NCBI GenBank assembly: GCA_964526195.1
Contig: CAZGIH010000020.1
Coordinates: 12,803 to 76,802 of the forward strand
Reading direction: 5' to 3'
Length of the DNA stretch: 64,000 nt
Source of the DNA: an uncultured Chromatiales bacterium
GTDB taxonomy: Bacteria > Pseudomonadota > Gammaproteobacteria > Poriferisulfidales > Poriferisulfidaceae
A program made the translations under genes and the position numbers. Under the pieces are notes generated by a model, which was given only the letters and a program-made list of their open reading frames with translations, was not told the DNA's origin and did not search any database. Position 1 is the stretch's first letter. Each line of letters starts with the position of its first letter. Positions 3,117-39,252 of the stretch are shown in pieces.

Positions 3117-3932
3117 ATGGGAAAAGTTCGAGTAGGGATTGCTGGTGTTACCGGCCGAATGGGCAGCACCCTGGTTCGGGTGGCGCTGGAGACTCCCGGC
3201 ATTGCGCTGGGCGCGGCCAGCTCGCACAGCCAAGACGAGTTAGTGGTTGGGCGGGACGCCGGGCTGTTCTCGGGAGGGGAAGAGTCGGGTGTGGCGATTT
3301 CCGGGTCGCTCGAATACTGCCATGGAGATTTCGACGTTGCGATCGACTTCACGTGCCCCGAATACACGGTGGAACTGGCCCGGTTCTGTGTGGAACAGGA
3401 AAAGGGCATGGTGATCGGTACGACTGCGCACAGCAAAGAGCAGTTGGAAGCCGTTGCCGAGGCGGCGAAAAAAATCCCGATCGTGATGGCGCCGAACATG
3501 AGTATTGGCGTCAACCTGATGTTGAACCTGATCACCGAGGCCGCCAAGTCGCTTGGCGACGAGACGGATACGGACATCGTGGAATTGCATCATCGCAAGA
3601 AGCACGACGCCCCGTCCGGTACCGCGCTGGCTTTGGGCAAGGCGGTGGCGAAAGGAAGGAAACAGGCATTCCCGGACTGTGCTTCGTTCAGGGCCCTGTC
3701 GACGGGCGACGAAAGAGATGCGGACAAGATCCAATATCACATCATGCGGATGGCGAACGTTGTCGGCGAGCACCGGGTGGTTTTCGCCTGGAACAACGAA
3801 CGGTTGGAGTTAGTGCACCGGGCGGGCAGCCGGGAGATTTTCGCTGGCGGTGCCTTGCGCGCGGCGGCTTGGGTTTCTGGCCGGTCACCCGGGCTGTATT
3901 CGATGCAGGACGTACTCGCGATGTTAGACTAA
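3117..3932 (+). CDS. dapB: 4-hydroxy-tetrahydrodipicolinate reductase
   Basis: 271 aa; N-terminal Rossmann motif [11 protein letters not shown]; conserved dnaKJ-dapB neighbourhood. Confidence 0.92.
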
Positions 3933-3966
3933 CCCGCCACGGCTGCTAGCCGCCGGGACGTCATGC

Positions 3967-4053
3967 GGAGAGGTGGCAGAGTGGTCGAATGCGGCGGTCT
4001 TGAAAACCGTTGAACCGAAAGGTTCCGGGGGTTCGAATCCCTCCCTCTCCGCC
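3967..4053 (+). tRNA. tRNA-Ser (anticodon UGA)
   Basis: The acceptor stem GGAGAGG pairs with CCTCTCC, followed by discriminator G and CCA. The anticodon stem GCGGT pairs with ACCGT around the loop CTTGAAA (anticodon TGA). A long variable arm is characteristic of type II (Ser) tRNAs, and the T-loop is GTTCGAATC. Confidence 0.9.
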
Positions 4054-4078
4054 ACACGGACGTTGATGGACTACTCGC

Positions 4079-5638
4079 ATGGGGTTTTGGGAACTCGTCG
4101 TCGGCTTGTCGGAAAACCTGTTCTACGCATGGGGCTGGCCTTGGCTCGGCCTGCCAGGCGGAATCCTCCTTGTTCTCGGTCTGCTGCGGGCTCCGCGGGT
4201 GCTCGGCCTGCTGATGCTGATGCTGTCCGCCGCGACCGTGCTGGTGGTCTTGGCTCCGCACGTGACGGGGGCGGGCCGTCCAGACTGGCATGTCTTGCTG
4301 TTCGTCGGGGAATTCCTGCTTGGAGCAGCGGTGGCCGCCTTCGCGGCACGCGGGACGACCAACCTGCTTGAGCGTTGGCGCGGGCGCTGGATGCAGCGCA
4401 GCCCGCTGGCTCGCGATGCGCGGACCGATATCCGCACGGTCGGGGATTTGCTGCCGAAAGCTCGTGATGCCTATGATCCGCTGCCTCATTGCGAGTCGCT
4501 GGAGCAAATCTTCTTGGGCCTGGGTCCGGACGGCGATGCCGTTCATGTTGATCAAGCCTTATGGCGGAACTCCCATGTCGACATTGTCGGCATGACCGGC
4601 AGCGGCAAAGGGATTTTGGCCGGAGTACTGCTGACCCAAGCTGTGCGGCAGGGTGAGGCGGTGGTAGTGGTCGATCCCAAGGACGACGAATACGCACCGC
4701 GCGTGATGGCTCGTGCCGCCCGAGAGGCGGGCGTGCCGTTCTACCGCTTGGATCTCATGGACGAGACGGCGCAGTGGAATCCTCTTCGGGGCAAGACGGC
4801 CGACGAGATCGAAGAACTCCTGGTGGCGAGTCTGGGTTTGGGAGAGCGGGGCACCGAGGCGGATTTCTATCGCCTCAACGACCGCCGTGCCGCGCGGGAA
4901 TTCGCGCAACTGTACGACGATGAACCTTTGCCGATCCTGCTGGAGACGTTCCGCGGCCAGCCCGCAGCCCGCAAGGCGACGAAATTCATCGACGATATGG
5001 AAGAAATTGTCGCGACTCCTTCAGCGCGAGCCGAGGAAGGATTGGATATTGCCGGGGCGATTTCCGAAGGTGCGGTGATTTACGTGCGTGGTTCCGTGCG
5101 CCACTCTCGCATCCTCAAGCTGCAGAAGATGTTCGTGCTGTCGGTGATTCAGTACTGTGAACGGCGCGCTCGCGAGGAAGCCCGTCAGGTTTGCTTATTC
5201 TTGGATGAATTCCGCTATCTGGTCAGCGCACCCGTGCTGGAAGCGCTTGCTTCCATCCGCGACAAGCGAGCACACTTGGTTCTGGCGCATCAGACGGTGA
5301 ACGATTTGCGGAATGTCCCCGACGACCTAGATCCGGAGCAGGTGGTGTCCTCAGTGACTGAAAACTGTGGCCTGAAATTCTCCTACCGGGTCAACGATCC
5401 GGACACCGCGTTATGGTTGGCGCGCATGAGCGGAAATATCCTGGTCGACGACGAGGTGCGAAGCCTTGAGACCAATACGGTGCTCGCTGAACGGGAGCGA
5501 GATTTTCGCAGTTTGCGCCAGTCGGAACGCTATCTAGTGGATACTAATATGCTGCAATCCCTGCCGCCGCGTTGCGCGGTCAACTACGGCAACGGGCTCG
5601 CCCGATTTGTGTTTACGTCTCCGGTACCAGTTGAGTAG
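4079..5638 (+). CDS. Membrane-anchored P-loop ATPase resembling TraD/VirD4-type (type IV coupling protein-like) family; function unknown
   Basis: Two or three N-terminal hydrophobic helices; Walker A-like GMTGSGKG (the Ser/Thr after Lys is replaced by Gly); Walker B-like LFLDEF; LVLAHQTVNDL resembles the conserved Q-motif of TraG/TrwB coupling proteins. The start codon is uncertain. The gene lies 25 nt downstream of tRNA-Ser. Confidence 0.45.
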   Translation: MGFWELVVGLSENLFYAWGWPWLGLPGGILLVLGLLRAPRVLGLLMLMLSAATVLVVLAPHVTGAGRPDWHVLLFVGEFLLGAAVAAFAARGTTNLLERWRGRWMQRSPLARDARTDIRTVGDLLPKARDAYDPLPHCESLEQIFLGLGPDGDAVHVDQALWRNSHVDIVGMTGSGKGILAGVLLTQAVRQGEAVVVVDPKDDEYAPRVMARAAREAGVPFYRLDLMDETAQWNPLRGKTADEIEELLVASLGLGERGTEADFYRLNDRRAAREFAQLYDDEPLPILLETFRGQPAARKATKFIDDMEEIVATPSARAEEGLDIAGAISEGAVIYVRGSVRHSRILKLQKMFVLSVIQYCERRAREEARQVCLFLDEFRYLVSAPVLEALASIRDKRAHLVLAHQTVNDLRNVPDDLDPEQVVSSVTENCGLKFSYRVNDPDTALWLARMSGNILVDDEVRSLETNTVLAERERDFRSLRQSERYLVDTNMLQSLPPRCAVNYGNGLARFVFTSPVPVE

Positions 5639-5654
5639 GGTGTAACAGGTGCTG

Positions 5655-5942
5655 TCAGGTTGCAGGTGAAAGTCGCTTAGTGAGTTGGCTTGCTTTTTTC
5701 ATAGCTTGAGCCAGATCGCAGGATGCCTGAATTCGATACCAGGTTTCGGCCCCGCCTCCGAACACCTTGTCAAGGCGAATAGCCATCTCGGGGGAGATTC
5801 TTGAGCGGCAGTTCACTATGTTCGACAGTTGCTTACGGCTAACTCCAAGCTTTTGGGCAGCTTCTGTTACGCTCAGACCTAAGGGCTCCAGACAATCATG
5901 GCGCACGGATAGCCCCGGGTGGGGTGGACTTTTCATGGGCAT
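5655..5942 (-). CDS. HigA-family (XRE HTH) antitoxin-like protein, apparently orphan
   Basis: [65 protein letters not shown] matches the HigA antidote HTH pattern. The start was chosen at Met20 of the track ORF (5655..5999). No RelE/HigB-like ORF lies upstream on the same strand. Confidence 0.7.
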
Positions 5943-5986
5943 GCTGTAATCTTCCTGCTGGAATGTTGGACGGGTTAGAAGGAAAT

Positions 5987-6127
5987 CATGGCCAAACATA
6001 GTAAACCACTTACGCCTGAACAGATCGCGGAGATTGAAGACGAGGATATCGATTTCAGTGATATTCCCGAACTGGATGAATCTTTTTGGGAAGAAGCAGA
6101 AATCGTTGAGCCAGACCTAGCCGAATA
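5987..6127 (+). CDS. Small ORF (46 aa) with BrnA/DUF4415-like antitoxin signature; absent from the ORF track
   Basis: Reads [51 protein letters not shown] lies 4-5 nt upstream of the ATG. The [11 protein letters not shown] pattern is typical of DUF4415 proteins. Coordinates +/-1. Confidence 0.4.
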
Positions 6128-6239
6128 GACTCTCTTTACTTGACGTTTTTTCGCTATTTGACCCCTCTGCTGTAAAATAGTCTCCCGGCATAATTTTTAC
6201 GGCTCGCCAAGCCCAAAGCCGGACTTTCAGGAGACATTC

Positions 6240-7376
6240 TTGGCCAAACGCGCGTTGCTCGCTCTCGAAAACGGCGCGTTGTTTTTCGGAGATTCTATTG
6301 GGGCGGACGCCACCGCCGTTGGCGAAGTCGTTTTCAATACCGCCATCACCGGCTACCAGGAAATCCTGACCGACCCGTCGTATTGCCGGCAACTGATTAC
6401 GCTGACGCATCCGCACATCGGGAACGTCGGCACCAATGACGAGGACAACGAATCAAGCCCCCGGGTGCATGCCGCCGGGCTGATTGTCCGCGACGTGCCC
6501 GCGCGCATGAGCAACTGGCGCGGGGAACGGCCTCTGGGTGATTTTCTCGAAAGCCATGAGCTCCCCGGCATTGCCGGCATCGACACGCGCCGTCTAACCC
6601 GAATTCTGCGCGATCAAGGCGCCCAGTCGGGCTGCCTCACGACGGACGTCTCTGACTCGGATCGGGCGGTCGAGCAGGCTCGCGCATTTGCTGGGCTTGC
6701 GGGGATGGATTTAGCGCGGGAAGTCACCACAGAGACGGCCTACGACTGGGACGAGGGGGCTTGGGAAACAGAGTCCAACGAGTTGCCGCCCGTGCAATAC
6801 CGAGTGGTGGCCTACGACTACGGAATCAAACAAAATATCCTGCGTCTGCTGCGCGAACGGGGCTGCGCGGTCACGGTGGTGCCAGCCATGACTCCGGCCT
6901 CGGAAGTGCGCGCCCAGGATCCGGACGGTGTCTTCCTGTCCAACGGGCCGGGAGACCCTGAGCCATGCACCTACGCCCAAGAGGCGATTCAGGAACTGCT
7001 CGACGCCAAAATCCCGATGTTCGGCATATGTTTGGGCTGCCAACTGCTGGGTCTGGCCAGTGGCGCGCGCACGGTCAAGATGAAGACCGGTCACCATGGC
7101 GCCAACCACCCGGTGCTGGAACTGGACACGGGGCGGGTCCTGATCAGCAGCCAGAACCACGGGTTCGCGGTGGACGAGGGGTCACTGCCGGATCATTTGC
7201 GCCTCACTCATCGCTCGCTGTTCGACGGTACCGTACAAGGGATCAGTCACACCGAGGCGCCGGCGTTTGCCTTCCAAGGGCACCCGGAGGCCAGTCCCGG
7301 ACCGCATGACGTGGCCAGCCTGTTCGATCATTTCACCGACCTGATGCAGCAGCATCGCGCTGGGCAGTCCGGCTGA
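6240..7376 (+). CDS. carA: Carbamoyl-phosphate synthase small (glutaminase) subunit
   Basis: 378 aa; [19 protein letters not shown] and the class-I amidotransferase Cys motif GICLGCQ. Apparent TTG start with AGGAGA 7 nt upstream. Confidence 0.95.
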
Positions 7377-18885: not shown

Positions 18886-19251
18886 ATGATCCCCGGACAG
18901 CGCCCGGTGGCGGTGGGCGAACAGGTTCGCAGGCTTATCGGCCCGGCCTTGCTGCATGAAGTCAACGACCCGCGCCTTCGGCGGCTGACGGTTTCCGAGG
19001 TCGTCATGAGCCGGGATCTGAAGCATGCCACCGTGTACGTAATCAGCGCGGAAACGCCGGATTCGCGCCGGCGTGCGGAAATCGAAGCTGGATTCGAGCG
19101 CAGCACACCGTTCTTTCGCCGGTTGATTGGCGAGCGTGGTGGTCTGCGCTATGTGCCGAAGCTGCGCTTCATCCTGGACGATACCGAGGACCGGGCAGAG
19201 CGGATCGAAAGTCTTCTGGAGACATCTACCCGCGCCAAGACCACTCCGTGA
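18886..19251 (+). CDS. rbfA: Ribosome-binding factor A
   Basis: 121 aa; conserved position after infB. Confidence 0.92.
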   Translation: MIPGQRPVAVGEQVRRLIGPALLHEVNDPRLRRLTVSEVVMSRDLKHATVYVISAETPDSRRRAEIEAGFERSTPFFRRLIGERGGLRYVPKLRFILDDTEDRAERIESLLETSTRAKTTP

Positions 19252-20141
19252 CTCCACTTGTGCCTTGCGGCTGGTTGCTGCTGGACAAGCCGGTCGGACT
19301 GAGTTCGACCCGTGCCGTATCCCGAGTCAAGCGCCTCTTTCAGGCGAAGCGTGCCGGACATGCGGGCACTCTCGATCCATTGGCGAGCGGACTCCTCGCC
19401 ATCGCCCTGGGCCCGGCCACCCGCTGGTGCGCCTACCTGCTGGATGCCCCGAAATCCTACCGGTTCACAATCCGGCTGGGCCGAGAGACAGACAGCCATG
19501 ATGCGGAAAGCTTGGAGCAAGCGGCTCCGCCTCGTGCCGAAATCCCCTCGCTGGAGCGCGCTGAAATCGACGACCTGCTGTCCCGCTTTACCGGGGAAAT
19601 CCAACAGGTCCCGCCCATGTATTCCGCGCTCCACAGCGAAGGGCGACGCCTGTACGAACTGGCTCGCGAGGGCAAGGTGGTTGATCGGCCTCCCCGCGAA
19701 GTAAGGATCGACCGGCTGGAGCTGCTTGCGGATCGCCGGGAGGAGTGGGAACTTGAGGTTTCCTGCGGCAAGGGCACGTATGTGCGCTCGCTGGGGCACG
19801 ATATCGGCCAGGCGTTGGGTTGCGGAGCATACGTGAGCCAGTTGCGGCGCACGGAGCTCGGGGTTTTTGACGAAGCCCAGGCAGTCAGCCTGGAACAGGT
19901 CGAGGCCGATTCCGAGGAAGCACGCTTGGCGCGATTGCTTCCCCCAGATGCAGTGCTACCCGAGTGGCCGGTTCATTCCTGCACGGCGAGTGAGGAGGCC
20001 GCGTTGCGCAAAGGGCAGCAGATCGTTCACGAGGGATCTGCGGGATTTTGGAAATTACAGGATGCGCAGGGCCAGTTTTTCGGTGTGGCCGAGGTGCTGG
20101 AGACGGGACGGCTCCAACCGCGGCGCCTGATGGATAGATAA
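19248..20141 (+). CDS. truB: tRNA pseudouridine(55) synthase
   Basis: 297 aa; GHAGTLDPLASG catalytic-Asp motif; C-terminal PUA domain; conserved position after rbfA. Confidence 0.95.
   Translation: MTPLVPCGWLLLDKPVGLSSTRAVSRVKRLFQAKRAGHAGTLDPLASGLLAIALGPATRWCAYLLDAPKSYRFTIRLGRETDSHDAESLEQAAPPRAEIPSLERAEIDDLLSRFTGEIQQVPPMYSALHSEGRRLYELAREGKVVDRPPREVRIDRLELLADRREEWELEVSCGKGTYVRSLGHDIGQALGCGAYVSQLRRTELGVFDEAQAVSLEQVEADSEEARLARLLPPDAVLPEWPVHSCTASEEAALRKGQQIVHEGSAGFWKLQDAQGQFFGVAEVLETGRLQPRRLMDR
20124..20133. repeat. Left copy of a 10-bp direct repeat CGCCTGATGG (last codons of truB) flanking the low-GC islet
   Basis: An exact 10-mer also occurs at 21338-21347; the two copies bracket about 1.2 kb of markedly AT-rich DNA. 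Confidence 0.5.
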
Positions 20142-20250
20142 CTTGATAGAGATTGTGGTGCCCTCTAATCCTACAGACATCGAATGGTTGCAGTAACGGA
20201 TAAAATTTTTTTATTTTCAATCATTTATAGAAACGAATCGTCTAAACATC

Positions 20251-20279
20251 AAAACACAGAGAAACTTAGGACTATAATG
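20251..20279 (+). promoter_or_regulatory. Candidate sigma70-like promoter for the islet gene
   Basis: Consensus -10 TATAAT at 20274-20279; weak -35 AAAACA at 17-nt spacing; AT-rich upstream region. Confidence 0.3.
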
Positions 20280-20329
20280 ACGACTCAAATGAAATTACAG
20301 ATTATTTGGATTTTTTAGGAGAAAAAATA

Positions 20330-20767
20330 ATGGGCGTACAGGCGATTGATGTGGCCGCCTACATTCTTAAAGAGCTTGGCACAATGCCCGCCATGAAGCT
20401 CCATAAGCTTGTCTATTATTCTCAAGCATGGTCTCTTGTGTGGGACGACAAGCCCATTTTCCATGACCGGATTGAGGCATGGGCAAATGGCCCAGTCATC
20501 CGGAATTTGTATAACAAACACAAAGGAAGGTTTCGTGTGGGCAGCATTAAGGGCGCCGAACGGACATTGCTGAACTCCGAACAGTGTGAAACCATAGATG
20601 CTGTTCTTGATTACTATGGTGACAAGTCTTCGCAATGGCTCAGTGATTTGACCCACATGGAGGCTCCGTGGCAAGAAGCACGAGCAAAAGCGGGTCTTGC
20701 CAGTGGACAACGCGGAAACGCATGTATCACTCATGCATCTATGGCTGAATACTACTCTGGTTTGTAA
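20330..20767 (+). CDS. Panacea-domain (DUF4065 / GepA-SocA-like) protein, antitoxin-type domain
   Basis: 145 aa from the ATG with AGGAGA 8 nt upstream; KLHKLVYYSQAWSLVWDDKPIFHDRIEAWANGPVIRNLYNKHK matches the DUF4065 core. About 40% GC against about 65% in the flanks. Ends at TAA 20765-20767. Confidence 0.7.
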   Translation: MGVQAIDVAAYILKELGTMPAMKLHKLVYYSQAWSLVWDDKPIFHDRIEAWANGPVIRNLYNKHKGRFRVGSIKGAERTLLNSEQCETIDAVLDYYGDKSSQWLSDLTHMEAPWQEARAKAGLASGQRGNACITHASMAEYYSGL

Positions 20768-20773
20768 AGCAAC

Positions 20774-21217
20774 TTGGGCAGGAAGCCAGCCAGAAAATTA
20801 TCCAAATCATCCGAACTCCCCCGTCCCACTAAAAAAGCAAAGAGTGGCGGGGATTCGGGCAAAGACGGTCATTTGTCCTGGAGGTTCAGTGCGTGTGACA
20901 AGAACGGTCCTTGGCCTTGGTTGGGGCTATCAGATCCCGAAACACATCAACGTGTAATAGAGAAATTATCAGGTTTTGAACAACTGAACCCAGAGCAAAT
21001 TAAAAAAACAGGGAGTCATCCTATAGAGGTTGGTAAACTTGTAAAAGACGCTAGAGACCGCCTTCAGCAACTTCATAAAGATGATGTGGATGAACTTTAT
21101 TCGTTCCGCATTTCTAGCAGAGAAAGAGTTTGGTGCATAAGGAAACAGAATGTTATGGAAGTCTTGTGGTGGGATCCAGAACACCATGTCTATCCAACAC
21201 AGCCTAGTAATACCTAA
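20774..21217 (+). CDS. 147-codon ORF in the same frame as the Panacea gene, separated from it by one TAA and two codons; no ATG or RBS; possible C-terminal portion or readthrough product
   Basis: A long open frame in AT-rich DNA. The only in-frame starts are TTG. The C-terminal stretch DELYSFRISSRERVWCIRKQNVMEVLWWDPEHHVY loosely resembles the final strands of RelE/ParE-fold toxins. Confidence 0.4.
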   Translation: MGRKPARKLSKSSELPRPTKKAKSGGDSGKDGHLSWRFSACDKNGPWPWLGLSDPETHQRVIEKLSGFEQLNPEQIKKTGSHPIEVGKLVKDARDRLQQLHKDDVDELYSFRISSRERVWCIRKQNVMEVLWWDPEHHVYPTQPSNT

Positions 21218-21337
21218 ACTACTTTTCCGACTTCAAAAAACTAGAATCATTCAGATGGCTTGGCTGGAAACCGCCTTTATGGGCATTTGCCGCTCGGCAT
21301 GCTCGGTCGCACTTGGCAAGTTATCCATACAATCCCT

Positions 21338-21347
21338 CGCCTGATGG
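21338..21347. repeat. Right copy of the 10-bp direct repeat CGCCTGATGG
   Basis: Exact match to 20124-20133; lies where high GC resumes, upstream of sppA. Confidence 0.5.
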
Positions 21348-21394
21348 CCGACCCCGAGAGTCCAGTACAATCGGCAATCTAGAGGAAAGCCGCC

Positions 21395-22318
21395 ATGGAT
21401 GAAAAAGAATCCGCTCTCGTCGTTGCGGTCCGCGAACTGACCGCCGAGACCCGCCGTGCCCGACGTTGGCGAACCGCGTTCGCCACGATTCCGTTTCTTA
21501 TCCTGCTGCTGATCCTGCTCGCGATGCTCGGAGGAGAGTCCTCGTTGCCGAGGCAGGATGCGCACACTGCCCGGATCGACGTGTTCGGCCCGATCGTGCC
21601 CCAGGCCCCGGCAAGTGCGGAATTCATCAACCAGTCGCTGCGCGAGGCATTCGAGGAAGAACAGGCAAAAGGGGTGGTGTTGCGCATCAACAGCCCCGGC
21701 GGATCGCCCGTCCAGGCGGATCGCATTAGTTCGGAGATCCAGAGGCTGAAGGCGGAATACCCGGAAAAGAAAATCTATGCGGTGGTCGAGGACCTGTGCG
21801 CGTCTGCCGCGTACTACATTGCTGTCGAGGCAGACGAGATCTACGTCAACGGTTCCAGCCTGGTCGGCTCGATCGGTGTGATCGCCAGCGGGTTCGGTTT
21901 CGCCGAACTGATCGAAGAGTGGGGCATCGAGCGGCGCGTAACGGCTTCCGGGCGGCATAAGGCGATGCTCGATCCGTTTCTGCCGCAGGATCCGGAGGCT
22001 GAGGCACATCTTCAGAATCTGGTGGATCGGATCCACCAACAGTTCGAGAACGCTGTCAAGGATGCCCGGGGAGAGCGTTTGACGGCCTCGGACGAAGAGG
22101 TGTTCGACGGGCGGATCTGGACCGGCGACCAGGCGCAGGAGATGGGGCTGGTGGACGGATTTTCGGATGTTGCGCAGGTTGCGCGCGACCAGGTCGGGGC
22201 CGAATCAGTGGTGAATTACACCTATGAGCCGGATTTCCTGGAGCGCGTGGCGGACCGGGTTGGTGCCCGGCTGGCCCAGATGGCAGAATCTTGGTTGCGC
22301 AGCCCGGTGCGGTTCTAG
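21395..22318 (+). CDS. sppA: Signal peptide peptidase SppA (36K type, S49 family)
   Basis: 307 aa; N-terminal membrane anchor; LRINSPGGS active-site Ser motif; RBS GAGGAAAG. Confidence 0.9.
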   Translation: MDEKESALVVAVRELTAETRRARRWRTAFATIPFLILLLILLAMLGGESSLPRQDAHTARIDVFGPIVPQAPASAEFINQSLREAFEEEQAKGVVLRINSPGGSPVQADRISSEIQRLKAEYPEKKIYAVVEDLCASAAYYIAVEADEIYVNGSSLVGSIGVIASGFGFAELIEEWGIERRVTASGRHKAMLDPFLPQDPEAEAHLQNLVDRIHQQFENAVKDARGERLTASDEEVFDGRIWTGDQAQEMGLVDGFSDVAQVARDQVGAESVVNYTYEPDFLERVADRVGARLAQMAESWLRSPVRF

Positions 22319-34528: not shown

Positions 34529-35111
34529 GCACGAGCTGATCGGTCAGGTCGCACAGGCAGTGCAGGATCAGGATATGGACTTCCTGGACCCGGGCCGTGG
34601 AATCGGACGGAACGCACAGTTCAATGTCACTCTCGCGCATCTGGCCGCGAATGGCGCCGCCGTCCCGGCCGGTAAGGGCGATCACCCGCATTTGCCTGGA
34701 TTGTGCTGCCTCGATGGCCTGCACGACGTTGGGGGAATTGCCGCTGGTGCTGATCGCGACAAGAATGTCGCCTTCCCGTCCAAGCCCTTCGACCTGGCGG
34801 CTGAAAACCCGTTCAAATCCGTAGTCGTTACCGATGGCGGTGAGCGCCGAGGTATCGGTGGAGAGGGCAACGGCGGGCAGGGCCTCCCGTTCCTTTTCAA
34901 AGCGGCCGATCAGTTCGGCGGCAAAATGTTGTGCGTCTGCCGCTGAGCCGCCATTACCGCAACTCAATACCCGACGGTCGTCCGACAAGGCCTGTGCCAG
35001 CAAGGCCCCGGCCTGGGAGATCGGTTCGACAAGCCGTTCCTGAGAGTCCCGATGGGTCGCAAGGCTGTCTTCAAACAGTTGCCGGACCCGTTGCTCGTAT
35101 GCCGCACTCAT
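34521..35111 (-). CDS. gmhA: Phosphoheptose isomerase / DiaA-type SIS-domain protein
   Basis: Start taken at the internal Met (MSAAYEQRVRQ...); SIS motifs VLSCGNGGSAADAQHFAAEL and VAISTSGNSPNV; about 196 aa; ATGA overlap with the upstream gene. Confidence 0.85.
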   Translation of the reverse strand: MSAAYEQRVRQLFEDSLATHRDSQERLVEPISQAGALLAQALSDDRRVLSCGNGGSAADAQHFAAELIGRFEKEREALPAVALSTDTSALTAIGNDYGFERVFSRQVEGLGREGDILVAISTSGNSPNVVQAIEAAQSRQMRVIALTGRDGGAIRGQMRESDIELCVPSDSTARVQEVHILILHCLCDLTDQLVHE

Positions 35112-35968
35112 GTCGGGCCCTGGAAGTGGAGCAACAGCAGCCAGAACCCTGAACTGGCCAGCAATAACCCGGTTATCGTTCGGAATAGCCGCGCAGGGCT
35201 TGGAAGGGCCTTTTCGACGATCACGAAAAGCGCGATAGCCGCGACCCACAGCATGTTCATCATGCCGACGGCGAACAGGACCAGCATCAGCGCCCAGCAG
35301 CACCCGATGCAATACAGTCCGTGTTCAAAAGACATCTGCAGGGCGCCAGCCCGGCCGTCTTTCCAGCGGGCAAGCAGGAACTGCATGGGTGTTCGGCACA
35401 GGGTGAGGCAGACATCTTTCCATGGCGTCCACTGGTACAGGCCCGCCACGATCAGCAAAATGCCGCTGAACAACTGGCTTCGACTGTCCATCATGGGGTC
35501 GAGCAGCCCCCATTCGTGCAGGGGCCACTGCACGACCGAGATCACTGCGGAAAACGCGGCCCAAGAGGCGAGATAACCGACCAGAAAGATCATCCAGGGG
35601 ACGATTTTCAAGGTCTGCCGGCTCCGGTTCCGTTGTACGACCCGGTACATCCGCAGCATCGGCACGGCACTGGGCGTCATCATCGCGACCATCATGATCG
35701 ACCACATGGCGAACAGCATCCAGAAGTCGTATCCGCTCCAGCCGCCGACTCCGGCGGGCGGAGGCATCCACGCGATAGAGGGCCCGCCCCGCATCATGTC
35801 GCGCATCATCCATTCCATGTACAGCATCCAGCCCCACCCGCTGGCGGTGACGGCGATGACGGCGCCGATGAGGGTCCAGCGTTCAGCCGTCGGCAGGGGC
35901 GCGAATTCAGGAGTGGAGGCGGTGGCAGGCATGAGCGAAGCTCCCGCGGCCATTTTAACAGGTGGCAT
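35108..35968 (-). CDS. DUF2182-family polytopic membrane protein (predicted metal-binding)
   Basis: Multiple TM helices; HGLYCIGCCW motif; start codon ambiguous. Confidence 0.6.
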   Translation of the reverse strand: MPPVKMAAGASLMPATASTPEFAPLPTAERWTLIGAVIAVTASGWGWMLYMEWMMRDMMRGGPSIAWMPPPAGVGGWSGYDFWMLFAMWSIMMVAMMTPSAVPMLRMYRVVQRNRSRQTLKIVPWMIFLVGYLASWAAFSAVISVVQWPLHEWGLLDPMMDSRSQLFSGILLIVAGLYQWTPWKDVCLTLCRTPMQFLLARWKDGRAGALQMSFEHGLYCIGCCWALMLVLFAVGMMNMLWVAAIALFVIVEKALPSPARLFRTITGLLLASSGFWLLLLHFQGPT

Positions 35969-35997
35969 ATGTTGGAAGATGGGGATATAGTGGCCTA

Positions 35998-36963
35998 ATG
36001 AAAGCGGTAAATCGAGACAAGCCGGACCAATGGAAAGAAGACATTATCCGGTCAGTCGACATGTACAACAAGTGGTTTATCAGATTTGCGCCAAAAGCGT
36101 ATCGGGATGTTCGAGAGCAGACAGCCGAGGATGTCAAAAAGATGTTAAAAGCGACGGGCAATTTCAGAAAAATTGATGTAGCATTGCTCAAGGCATTTCC
36201 TGCTGTGTTGCCGACACTTCGGATGACCACTTCTCCACCGCTTGCAATAGATCGCTTGGTAGGACTCTCGGGCGCTTCAGCCAACCTTGTCAAAGTGATG
36301 GAAAAACAAGGCAAGCTTCCCTCTCGGATGTCACCGAGGGAATTGGATGCCAACCTTAGGAAAATCAGCAAAACGATCCAGAAAATGATTGATCCGGACA
36401 TTTTTGGCTGGTTGAAGAACGACAGAAAACCATCTCGACAGGACTTGTACCGGGCCGCGACAATTGTGGCTGACCGGTTATGCGGTGCTGTTGCAAACCC
36501 GATTATTCGCAATGCTCAGGAAAGAAGACAGCTTGCTACCATCGGGAAGTGGCTAAAGAATCGTGGCTATTTGAAGATTTCACCAGGAGAGGGAGCAAAA
36601 TATGATGAAATGCAGCCGGGAACATATTCGTTCCGACTGAATGTGCCAGCCGAGCAGGATCAAACTGGTAAATCAGTTAATATTCCTATGGATGTTGCCG
36701 TGATGCCTAAAAATGCGAAAGTGAGGAATTTGCCGCTTCTCATAGAGGCAAAATCTGCGGGTGACTTTACAAATGTCAACAAGCGCCGAAAGGAAGAAGC
36801 CACAAAAATGAGTCAATTGCGGCGAACCTATGGCAACAACGTGCGGTTTATTTTGTTTCTATGTGGATATTTCGACAGTGGCTATCTCGGCTATGAAGCA
36901 GCAGAAGGTATCGACTGGGTGTGGGAGCACCGTGTCGATGATCTCGAAAAATTTGGGATTTAG
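35998..36963 (+). CDS. Putative type II restriction endonuclease (PD-(D/E)xK), partner of the downstream methyltransferase
   Basis: IPMDVAVMPKNAKVRNLPLLIEAK gives a D...EAK nuclease motif. Its TAG stop abuts the methyltransferase ATG. About 47% GC against about 65% for the host. An alternative GTG start lies at 35962. Confidence 0.55.
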   Translation: MKAVNRDKPDQWKEDIIRSVDMYNKWFIRFAPKAYRDVREQTAEDVKKMLKATGNFRKIDVALLKAFPAVLPTLRMTTSPPLAIDRLVGLSGASANLVKVMEKQGKLPSRMSPRELDANLRKISKTIQKMIDPDIFGWLKNDRKPSRQDLYRAATIVADRLCGAVANPIIRNAQERRQLATIGKWLKNRGYLKISPGEGAKYDEMQPGTYSFRLNVPAEQDQTGKSVNIPMDVAVMPKNAKVRNLPLLIEAKSAGDFTNVNKRRKEEATKMSQLRRTYGNNVRFILFLCGYFDSGYLGYEAAEGIDWVWEHRVDDLEKFGI

Positions 36964-38550
36964 ATGGCTAGAAGTGAAATTGCGACGCTGGAGAAGCATC
37001 GTTTGATGCTTCAGGGGCAACTGGACTCAAAAAAGCATCAAGTTGAACGGAATCGGATGGGGCAATTCGCCACGCCTCCAGAATTGGCAGTGGACATTCT
37101 CCGTTATGCTGAAACCCATAGCGGGATCAACGAAAGAGTCCGTTTCCTTGACCCAAGCTTGGGAACCGGGTCGTTTTATTCAGCTTTGCTCAAAGTGTTT
37201 CCACAAAACCGCATTGATTCTGCTGTAGGCTACGAAATCGATTCCCATTATGGAATTCCTGCGGCAAATTTGTGGGAAAAGACAGGCTTGGATGTCCGTT
37301 TGAGTGATTTTACGCGGGCTGAAGCGCCACCAGATTCTGAAAAGTTTAACCTGCTTGTTTGTAACCCACCTTACGTTCGGCACCATCATATTGACAGTGG
37401 AGAAAAACAGCGCCTGAAGGCCTGTTTGCAGAAAGCGTGCAGCATGCGGCTCAGTGGATTGGCCGGATTGTACTGTTATTTTCTTGGGTTAAGCCATAAG
37501 TGGCTGGCCGAGGGAGGGCTTGCGGGCTGGTTGGTGCCAAGCGAATTTATGGATGTGAATTATGGTGCTGCAGTAAGGAATTACCTGCTAAATAACGTGA
37601 CGCTGCTGCATCTGCATCGATTTGATCCAGACGATGTGCAGTTTGAAGACGCCTTGGTGTCTTCGGTTGTGGTCTGGTTCCGCAAAGCGAAACCGCCGCT
37701 AGAACACCACGTCAGGTTCACATACGGTGGATCGCTTGGCAGCCCAAGGCTGGAACGTTTGGTGCCCGCCGAGACGCTGTGTCGTAGCTCTAAGTGGACA
37801 GGCTATCCGGCAAAAGAGGACGGTGATAAAGCAAATGTGCCAGTTTTGGGTGATTTCTTCAGCATTAAGCGGGGACTGGTGACCGGGGGCAACCGGTATT
37901 TCATCTTGACACTTGAGGAAATCAAGTACCGTGGATTACCTCGAGAAGCATTTCGGCCCATATTGCCGAGCCCGCGTTATTTGCGAGAGAACGAAGTAGT
38001 AGCCGACGGGGATGGAAACCCGGTGCTGGGCCGTCGTTTATTCTTGCTTGATTGCCGACTGGGAGAGGCGCAGATAAGGAAGAAATATCCAGCCTTGTGG
38101 AAATATCTTGAAGAAGGGGAAGCACTGGGTATAGCCAAACGCTACCTCTGTCGGCATCGGACACCTTGGTATACACAGGAAGAACGGCCGCCAGCGCCAT
38201 TCGTATGCACTTACCTTGGAAGAAAGGGAACAAAAAACGGGCGGCCGTTTCGCTTCATACTGAACCACTCTCGGGCGACTGCCGCAAATGTCTACCTCAT
38301 GCTCTACCCTAAAGGACCGATTGCCCGAGCCTTAGAGGAAGATCCGGACTTGAAAAAGAAACTCTGGAAGTTTCTCAATGCAATTCGTCCCCAGACAATG
38401 CTGGATGAGGGACGAGTCTATGGTGGGGGGTTGCATAAGCTTGAGCCAAGAGAATTGAGTAATGTACCGGTTGCGGAATTTGCGGAACTATTGCCGGAAC
38501 CAGCACGATTGCAGTCCGAAAAGCAAGGAGAATTATTTGTGGCAGTTTGA
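36964..38550 (+). CDS. Gamma-class N6-adenine DNA methyltransferase (Eco57I/TaqI-like) with C-terminal target-recognition domain
   Basis: 528 aa. Motif I FLDPSLGTGSF precedes motif IV LLVCNPPYVRHH, the gamma-class order. The low-GC composition is shared with the upstream nuclease. Confidence 0.85.
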   Translation: MARSEIATLEKHRLMLQGQLDSKKHQVERNRMGQFATPPELAVDILRYAETHSGINERVRFLDPSLGTGSFYSALLKVFPQNRIDSAVGYEIDSHYGIPAANLWEKTGLDVRLSDFTRAEAPPDSEKFNLLVCNPPYVRHHHIDSGEKQRLKACLQKACSMRLSGLAGLYCYFLGLSHKWLAEGGLAGWLVPSEFMDVNYGAAVRNYLLNNVTLLHLHRFDPDDVQFEDALVSSVVVWFRKAKPPLEHHVRFTYGGSLGSPRLERLVPAETLCRSSKWTGYPAKEDGDKANVPVLGDFFSIKRGLVTGGNRYFILTLEEIKYRGLPREAFRPILPSPRYLRENEVVADGDGNPVLGRRLFLLDCRLGEAQIRKKYPALWKYLEEGEALGIAKRYLCRHRTPWYTQEERPPAPFVCTYLGRKGTKNGRPFRFILNHSRATAANVYLMLYPKGPIARALEEDPDLKKKLWKFLNAIRPQTMLDEGRVYGGGLHKLEPRELSNVPVAEFAELLPEPARLQSEKQGELFVAV

Positions 38551-38640
38551 CGCTTGGCCTTGGCGCAATAGCCTGCGGGCCGTGTTATACTCCCCACCCG
38601 AACAACGCGCCGCGTACTCTAATAAAAAGGAGGAACAGCC

Positions 38641-39252
38641 ATGGCATCAGATAATTGGAGCATCAAAGGCAATTACTTTGAATCCTGCACGTGCGACCTC
38701 ATCTGCCCGTGCATCACGCTGAAACCCCCCACCACTGGAACCTGTACTGCACTGCTGGGATGGCATATCGACGAAGGCCATCTGGACGACCTGGAAATCA
38801 ACGATCTCAATGTCGCAATGTTTCTTGAAGCCCCCGGTCTTCTGACCGAAGGCGGCTTCAAGGTAGCCCTGTACGTCGATGAGCGTGCCAGCGAAGCGCA
38901 GTTCGATGCCATCACCCAGATGTACTCAGGCCAACTCGGCGGCCATTTAGCGGTCGTGTGCAGCTTGGTTGGCGAGGTGGTCAGCGTCAAGCAGACCTCG
39001 ATCGAGTACTCCGTGGATGGCAAGACCCGTCGCCTGAAAGTCGGTGACGGCATCGGAGAGAGCGAAGTCGTGGAAGTCGAAGGTGCCGACGGAGGCCCGG
39101 TCATCGTTTCCAACCCACCCCTGGCCATTGCCCCGGGCAATGACATCACGATCAGTGATACCGTCAAGGTGGCGTACAGCGATAACGGAGTCACCCATGA
39201 GCATTCAGGTACCGTAAGTTTGGCTTCGAACTTCACCTATGGCCCGGACTGA
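38641..39252 (+). CDS. DUF1326-like Cys-rich protein of unknown function
   Basis: 203 aa; N-terminal FESCTCDLICPC cluster; strong RBS AAAGGAGGA; terminator downstream. Confidence 0.55.
   Translation: MASDNWSIKGNYFESCTCDLICPCITLKPPTTGTCTALLGWHIDEGHLDDLEINDLNVAMFLEAPGLLTEGGFKVALYVDERASEAQFDAITQMYSGQLGGHLAVVCSLVGEVVSVKQTSIEYSVDGKTRRLKVGDGIGESEVVEVEGADGGPVIVSNPPLAIAPGNDITISDTVKVAYSDNGVTHEHSGTVSLASNFTYGPD

Follow-up and report, generated by a model that had tools for sequence, protein, structure and literature searches.

Two abutting genes of low G+C content (GC) lie between conserved neighbours in the chromosome of an uncultured sponge symbiont, and they raise two questions: do they form a working restriction-modification (R-M) system, and how did such a system come to sit there? 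The genes are found in a stretch of 64,000 nucleotides (hereafter the window) from a Chromatiales bacterium (assembly GCA_964526195.1, contig CAZGIH010000020.1, positions 12,803 to 76,802 of the forward strand). Below we refer to the upstream gene, a predicted endonuclease, as R and to the downstream gene, a predicted methyltransferase, as M; their coordinates and those of the surrounding features are collected in Table 1. An initial annotation of this DNA had described two genes of about 320 and 528 amino acids (aa), in which a TAG stop codon is followed directly by an ATG, and both the arrangement and the sizes (321 and 528 aa) hold. We are highly confident that the region represents an intact, probably active orthodox type II R-M system of the XamI/SalI family.

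The assignment of R as an endonuclease starts from a full-length family match. R matches the Pfam family RE_XamI (PF09572) with 373.4 bits (cut-off 25) over profile positions 2–256 of 256, as well as the PADLOC profile REase_II (E-value 2.2e-111, positions 2–314 of 315), and its homologues bear the name 'XamI family restriction endonuclease'. The longest open reading frame (ORF) of R begins at a GTG at position 35962; however, the N-terminus typical of the family (MxVNxDKP...) points to the ATG at 35998 as the start, and this gives the protein of 321 aa. A Pfam scan of R at E ≤ 0.1 returned RE_XamI and no other family, and no ATPase domain, while a sequence search of the PDB with R gave no meaningful match. 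The pair had previously been likened to either PstI/BsuBI or XamI systems; the second likeness stands (373 bits), whereas a PstI/BsuBI-type endonuclease is ruled out, as RE_XamI is the sole Pfam match. From its sequence, R is thus best described as a full-length XamI-family type II endonuclease. This family is a large one: over 8000 relatives share words with R, and an exhaustive search yielded 915 clusters at the 50% identity level.

The PD-(D/E)xK-like motif that had been noticed in the first gene product could be resolved into its catalytic residues, namely P-M-D232 and E250-A-K252. All 31 diverse representatives, the most distant of them at 31% identity, have D232, and E250 and K252 were invariant among 80 homologues (53–92% identity); the E-x-K element was missing only in the most divergent representatives of the family. 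A first AlphaFold2 (AF2) model of R, built from a shallow alignment of 33 close homologues, reached a predicted local distance difference test score (pLDDT) of 60.9, with values below 50 over the catalytic half, and was discarded and not used for the fold search. The second model, based on a broader alignment from a profile search, reached a pLDDT of 88.6. In this model R is predicted to adopt the restriction endonuclease (PD-(D/E)XK) fold, with D232, E250 and K252 sitting on beta-strands of the core. The literature counts XamI itself among the type II PD-(D/E)XK enzymes, solely from computational evidence (PMC3424549, PMC3045609). Among solved type IIP PD-(D/E)XK endonucleases, BsoBI (C/YCGRG), BstEII and PspGI are only 5–13% identical to R and have no sequence-level relationship to it; by analogy, the comparison suggests a two-domain, DNA-clamping dimer that leaves 5' overhangs. 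BsoBI has a catalytic histidine according to its PDB title, whereas the canonical D...ExK is conserved in R. As a side observation, the most divergent XamI-family members (31–40% identity; representatives P0283, P0296, P0300, P0312, P0338, P0346, P0351, P0353, P0359, P0374 and P0384 in alignment A3) retain the equivalent of D232 but have lost the E-x-K motif, and they may have become inactive or taken on another function.

The product of the second gene had been called a gamma-class N6-adenine methyltransferase, which our searches support. M matches PF07669 (Eco57I; 1.7e-14, 54.7 bits, threshold 25.3), PF02384 (N6_Mtase; 22.3 bits, threshold 20.4) and the PADLOC profile MTase_II (1e-131), with a further weak match to M_Eco57I_C, and no nuclease domain was found in it by the Pfam scan. 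Its N-terminal catalytic domain spans residues ~26–245 and its C-terminal target-recognition domain residues ~250–528. The motifs follow the gamma order, with motif X as F-A-T37-P-P, motif I as FLDPSLGTG (residues 61–69) and motif IV as NPPY (residues 134–137), followed by ~280 residues past the catalytic domain. Judged by sequence, M is therefore a gamma-class N6-adenine methyltransferase of the Eco57I/TaqI-like type. Its best PDB sequence match is M.BseCI (E 7.6e-9), with whose motifs X, I and IV those of M align. Indeed, M.BseCI and M.TaqI-type enzymes (Pfam Eco57I, N6_Mtase) share with M the motif order, the NPPY catalytic loop and an alignable N-terminal catalytic domain. The C-terminal recognition domain of M.BseCI, however, is only weakly alignable with that of M, and given such faint kinship its specificity cannot be transferred.

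To what extent do R and M belong together? Our linkage survey covered 80 unrelated metagenomic loci encoding R proteins 57–71% identical to that of the window, 75 of which had room downstream. M lay directly downstream of R and on the same strand in all 75, and in 73 of 74 family loci the two genes were separated by −11 to +5 nt. Among the alleles of Candidatus Porisulfidus, the genus of sponge symbionts considered below, this gap was 0 or 2 nt. On a 6.9-kb Psychrobacter plasmid, pA15BP1, the same R-then-M unit forms the principal cargo, and on a Deinococcus plasmid it lies between insertion sequence (IS) elements; carriage of a XamI-type unit by phages gave no match in the phage collection searched. 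The initial annotation had also considered that the first protein might match a non-nuclease family and the methyltransferase be an orphan; instead, R is a RE_XamI protein and M is linked to it at every one of these 75 loci.

The insert holds these two ORFs only, without an ATPase/helicase, a specificity subunit or a fused R-M polypeptide. Likewise, no gene for a small helix-turn-helix controller (C-protein) adjoins R, as there is no third ORF in the 2.59-kb insert and the leader measures just 33 bp. The system can be compared with XamI of Xanthomonas campestris pv. amaranthicola and SalI of Streptomyces albus G. R of the window fits the XamI family model over its full length, and where SalI has M.SalI, an adenine methylase of GTCGAC, the window has an adenine methyltransferase directly downstream, in R-then-M order. 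R.SalI and M.SalI are presumably 315 and 587 aa long, which are the lengths of the matching PADLOC profiles. The likeness was drawn through the family model, and the window pair differs in that its host is an uncultured sponge symbiont that does not avoid GTCGAC. By this likeness, M would N6-methylate an adenine in a short palindrome on both strands of the host DNA, and R, most likely as a homodimer with a PD-(D/E)XK active site, would cut the same site when unmethylated, as on incoming phage or plasmid DNA. Translational coupling from R to M is probable: with stop and start touching in one R-then-M unit, M would be translated by ribosomes that have just finished R.

To understand how the pair reached its location, we compared 12 genomes, each representing a species of Candidatus Porisulfidus or of its close relatives, which were retrieved by the neighbouring DUF1326 protein and carry locus numbers prefixed with L. 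All are sulfur-oxidising sponge symbionts with chromosomes of 1.6–2.0 Mb. The initial annotation had placed the pair between a DUF2182 membrane gene and the DUF1326/msrA locus and had proposed that it was horizontally acquired. Pfam confirmed these neighbours, including MsrA, and close relatives with clean empty sites directly demonstrate the horizontal origin. Homology to the six empty-site genomes ends at position 35964 (...TTTTAACAGGTG) and restarts 0–3 nt past the M stop codon. The same junctions are present in five or more lineages, interleaved with clean empty sites on the host tree.

As had been noted earlier, no mobility gene or direct repeat marks the borders. The only word shared by the two borders was the 6-mer GTGGCA, which chance alone would produce and which does not lie at the junctions, as a target-site duplication should; no inverted repeat or target duplication, long or short, was found at the insert borders, and no tRNA or Rfam element lies nearby. 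A recognisable mobile element (IS, transposon, integron, prophage or tRNA-linked island) as the carrier of the pair is ruled out by the lack of such hallmarks. Genome comparisons of R-M insertions by Kobayashi and co-workers have reportedly described bare R-M units that move without mobility genes of their own. The window resembles such units in its precise two-gene insertion between conserved neighbours, its lower GC and its patchy distribution among close relatives. In contrast to them, it is without target duplication or flanking inverted repeat, and its spread within the genus seems to have proceeded through recombination in the flanks.

On the left side, a conserved TGnTAAAAT element (35951–35959, minus strand) belongs to the native sequence immediately next to the junction, and CATTTTAACAGGT is invariant in the empty sites. 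On the right side, a conserved TATACT (38586–38591) and an AAGGAGG upstream of the DUF1326 gene, both invariant in the alignments, stay on the native side. TGnTAAAAT and TATACT could represent promoters, in which case the cassette would seem to sit between two divergent core promoters. The left neighbour, PpoB2/DUF2182, probably starts at 35932 and not at 35968, the start given by the ORF finder; we prefer the former since 35968 falls inside the insert and the gene calls in relatives (274 aa) match 35932.

The history of the cassette could be followed further by comparing its segments with the flanks. The right junction is common to all carriers, which argues for one original insertion, and the 33-bp leader is common to the window, L001, L019 and L011. 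On the host tree, inferred from 6.9 kb of flanks, carriers are paired with empty sisters (the window with L010, L009 with L008, and L015 with L012); L015 and L012 differ in gap content while their flanks are 97.6% identical. In neighbour-joining trees, that of R conflicts with the host tree, whereas that of the 3' part of M agrees with it. Left of a breakpoint inside M (Table 1), the window allele groups with L001, L011 and L019. Compared with L009, it is 76–86% identical up to ~37350 and 94–98% identical beyond, and the number of synonymous substitutions per synonymous site (dS) is 1.05 for R, 0.16 for the 3' part of M and ~0.24 for the flanks. Given these contrasts in identity and dS between segments, the alleles are mosaic. 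In general, dS is 1.3- to 4-fold higher in the R-M genes than in the flanks.

The cassette is thus no recent arrival in this genome; it is old and polymorphic within the genus. In the simplest reading, it segregates as a presence/absence polymorphism whose alleles and empty site are exchanged by recombination through the flanks. We propose that a foreign 2.59-kb cassette of lower GC would have landed once, in an ancestor shared by some members of Candidatus Porisulfidus, in the ~45-bp spacer that separates the two divergent core promoters, those of PpoB2/DUF2182 and of DUF1326, and that it would later have persisted as such a polymorphism, with homologous recombination via the conserved flanks swapping alleles and the empty site between lineages. 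The ratio of nonsynonymous to synonymous substitution rates (dN/dS) was 0.10–0.12 for R and 0.10–0.13 for M, compared with 0.02–0.14 for the housekeeping neighbours; values of about 0.1 indicate that both genes are under purifying selection.

In one relative the gap holds a second defence system. In the metagenome-assembled genome (MAG) RHO3_bin_14, a prokaryotic Argonaute (pAgo) and SIR2 pair lies between PpoB2 and R (L003 4554–7554, equal to L009 ~3911–7350), at a position that corresponds to the gap 35936–35997 of the window. It comprises a class II pAgo of 639 aa (PADLOC pAgo_II, 2e-191) and an Aga-SIR2 partner of 355 aa (5e-126). R and the 5' part of M constitute a very divergent allele in this genome, as if imported along with the pAgo pair. 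The filling of the gap in L016 and L017 had led us to consider the gap a pure defence island, which we rejected: the contents there are housekeeping or transport genes, and the synteny merely differs.

Several observations weigh against an active SalI-like system as we read it, and we take them here together with the alternatives on which they bear. One group concerns the target. XamI is an isoschizomer of SalI, which recognises GTCGAC. The adenines of this sequence are methylated by M.SalI (PMC3708114). By analogy, from family membership only, GTCGAC would be the leading guess for the target of the window pair, which we hold with moderate confidence. GTCGAC is not avoided in the window, however, with 34 observed sites against 34.6 expected from a Markov model (22.9 by shuffling), and its observed/expected ratio was 0.93 in carriers and 0.97 in non-carriers. 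The pooled flanks of 46 XamI-family loci from other hosts hold fewer GTCGAC sites than expected (0.57), but several unrelated palindromes are just as scarce there, and we rejected palindrome avoidance as target evidence in either direction. As to the literature, XamI papers give a computational fold assignment only, and methylome papers tie GTCGAC mostly to unrelated 5-methylcytosine enzymes.

It is accordingly quite conceivable, though we consider it less than probable, that the pair belongs to the XamI family and is still an orthodox type II system but reads a different sequence, such as another NTCGAN palindrome. Apart from the lack of GTCGAC avoidance, this would fit with the low count of ATCGAT in the window and with M.BseCI, the best solved relative of M, which we take to be an ATCGAT enzyme; the 915 clusters of the family also leave room for several specificities. 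The similarity between M and M.BseCI is weak, however, and concerns the catalytic domain only. A further point in favour of another target is CTCGAG, which is far rarer than expected throughout the genus, with observed/expected ratios of 0.39 in genomes that carry the pair and 0.32 in those that do not (loci L001 and L008–L019 plus the window) and with 12 sites against 24 in the window itself. Yet this depletion is independent of the R-M cassette, since it is equal in non-carriers. Moreover, endonucleases of the XhoI type form a separate family (PF04555), while R matches PF09572 only.

A second group of observations concerns composition. R has a GC of 0.468 and a GC at third codon positions (GC3) of 0.49, and M values of 0.506 and 0.505, whereas the rest of the window has a GC of 0.607 and the flanking genes a GC3 of 0.68–0.80. 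In 600-bp windows, the pair averages 0.493 against 0.607 ± 0.033 elsewhere (z = −3.5), and the low GC of the cassette (0.49) speaks for its foreign origin. The low GC of the pair given in the initial annotation is thereby confirmed (47–51%), while the background is ~60% and not ~65%; two further low-GC patches exist in the window, and the pair is therefore not unique in this respect. In every carrier lineage (the window, L001, L009, L011, L015 and L019) the cassette has a GC of 0.46–0.52 versus 0.61–0.64 in the flanks. Even though allele dS reaches ~1, no lineage shows amelioration of GC, which makes simple long vertical residence an inadequate explanation.

A broader reading, which we regard as speculative and rather doubtful, is that the ~100-bp spacer between PpoB2/DUF2182 and DUF1326 would be a genus-wide exchange slot for defence cassettes, in which R-M, pAgo plus SIR2 and the empty allele are swapped via the flanks without a mobility gene, and that the old, low-GC R-M alleles would be a trans-species polymorphism under phage-driven balancing selection. 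Alternatively, the cassette might persist mainly as a selfish addiction module, through post-segregational killing, and not for phage defence. The long maintenance of a bare two-gene cassette without mobility genes in such small genomes (1.6–2.0 Mb), alleles older than their flanks and an unameliorated GC would all be in line with this idea. We nevertheless consider it unlikely: the clean empty sites in sister lineages indicate that loss or replacement was repeatedly tolerated, and the pAgo-SIR2 pair stacked in the same gap of one relative suggests selection for defence at the locus. Addiction and defence could go together, and the two roles cannot be told apart from sequence alone.

The remaining observations against an active system concern the expression and integrity of R. 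The 33-bp leader of the window lacks a clear ribosome-binding site, such as a Shine-Dalgarno sequence, while the leaders of L015 and L009 are ~135 bp longer and have ribosome-binding sites. A promoter-like GTGGCA-18-TATAGT (35962–35991) occurred at chance frequency in our scan and serves as a hypothesis only, and the counts of the promoter and terminator scan equalled the shuffled expectation. In L011 (chromosome-level MAG OZ241993), R carries a 1-nt deletion in an A-run at ~8200 (equivalent to 36834–36840 of the window), ~27 codons before its end, which is either a frameshift or a homopolymer error; M is intact in this genome. In addition, the clusters of the two proteins at 90% identity include shortened copies of R (241, 273 and 203+117 aa) beside an intact M, as well as one split M (305 + 214 aa), a pattern that points to a step-by-step decay of the R-M system in some of the lineages. 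One could imagine from the truncated leader and these damaged copies that R is silent or inactive in the window lineage and that the locus amounts to an orphan adenine methyltransferase whose role, if it has one, would be epigenetic; this is improbable, as all catalytic residues of R are intact, TATAGT so close to the ATG would permit a leaderless mRNA, and the R genes of the short-leader carriers (the window, L001 and L019) differ at a dS of 0.37–0.39 with a dN/dS of 0.10, from which it follows that R stayed under selection after the leader was shortened.

With respect to R-M biology, the XamI/SalI-type pair of the window is one more predicted member of a large and already named family and involves no new mechanism. 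Its value is a modest one and lies in ecology and evolution: a clean-bordered defence cassette without mobility genes, between predicted divergent promoters of a small-genome sponge symbiont, has been gained, lost, recombined and sometimes degraded across sister species, and a second defence system has used the same gap. Carrier and non-carrier genomes with complete chromosomes, such as OZ241993 on the one side and OZ220694, OZ243950, OZ220480 and OY288106 on the other, would moreover provide a natural control for methylome-based assignment of the target.

Table 1. Features of the R-M locus in the window and states of the PpoB2-DUF1326 gap in the compared genomes.
Feature	Position	Strand	Remarks
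Whole inserted cassette	35965..38550	+	~2586 bp, ± 3 bp at each end; 33-bp leader, R and M only
5' leader of R	35965..35997	+	33 bp; −10-like TATAGT at 35986–35991, 6 nt before ATG
R, XamI-family type II restriction endonuclease (predicted)	35998..36963	+	321 aa
Catalytic PD-(D/E)XK signature of R (predicted)	36691..36753	+	D232 36691–36693, E250 36745–36747, K252 36751–36753
R stop/M start junction (TAG, ATG)	36961..36966	+	0-nt gap
M, gamma-class N6-adenine DNA methyltransferase (predicted)	36964..38550	+	528 aa
M motifs in gamma order	37072..37374	+	X 37072–37080, I 37144–37170, IV 37363–37374
Approximate recombination breakpoint inside M	37200..37350	+	Sliding identity, dS by segment, discordant neighbour-joining trees
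Left neighbour, PpoB2/DUF2182 membrane protein	35108..35932	-	Pfam PF09948; 274 aa from ATG 35932
Right neighbour, DUF1326 protein	38641..39252	+	Pfam PF07040
PpoB2-DUF1326 gap empty			L008, L010, L012, L013, L014, L018; ~100 bp (343 bp in L014)
PpoB2-DUF1326 gap with R-M pair			Window, L001/L002, L009 (= L003), L011, L015 (= L005), L019
PpoB2-DUF1326 gap with housekeeping or transport genes			L016, L017; more distant, synteny differs

Some further observations were made elsewhere in the window. A second presence/absence site lies 2.8 kb leftward of the cassette (L001 5907–7100, L005 4159–4791, equivalent to window 33133/33140). In some relatives a DUF6338 gene, accompanied in L001 by a 102-aa ORF, separates a Macro-domain gene from an FAD oxidase gene at this site; the window has 6 nt between the latter two. 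A low-GC island at 19800–21600 (GC 0.44–0.52), just past truB (19248–20141), contains a gene for a SocA/Panacea-domain antitoxin-like protein at 20306–20767 (Pfam 1.4e-18), followed by a 147-aa ORF at 20774–21217 without a Pfam match; the two genes (20306–21217) are probably an acquired toxin-antitoxin pair. Furthermore, a tRNA-Ser(tga) at 3967–4054 is directly followed by a gene for a 519-aa TraG/VirD4/HerA-like ATPase (4079–5638) and then by a low-GC helix-turn-helix gene of the XRE type on the minus strand (5655–5999), and this region (3967–5999) looks like the remnant of a tRNA-linked integrated element. Finally, in distant taxa (Acidobacteria, Alphaproteobacteria and others; L020–L030) the DUF1326 and PpoB2/DUF2182 genes are adjacent and co-oriented, whereas they are divergent in Candidatus Porisulfidus; their adjacency in such distant taxa fits with a functional pair.

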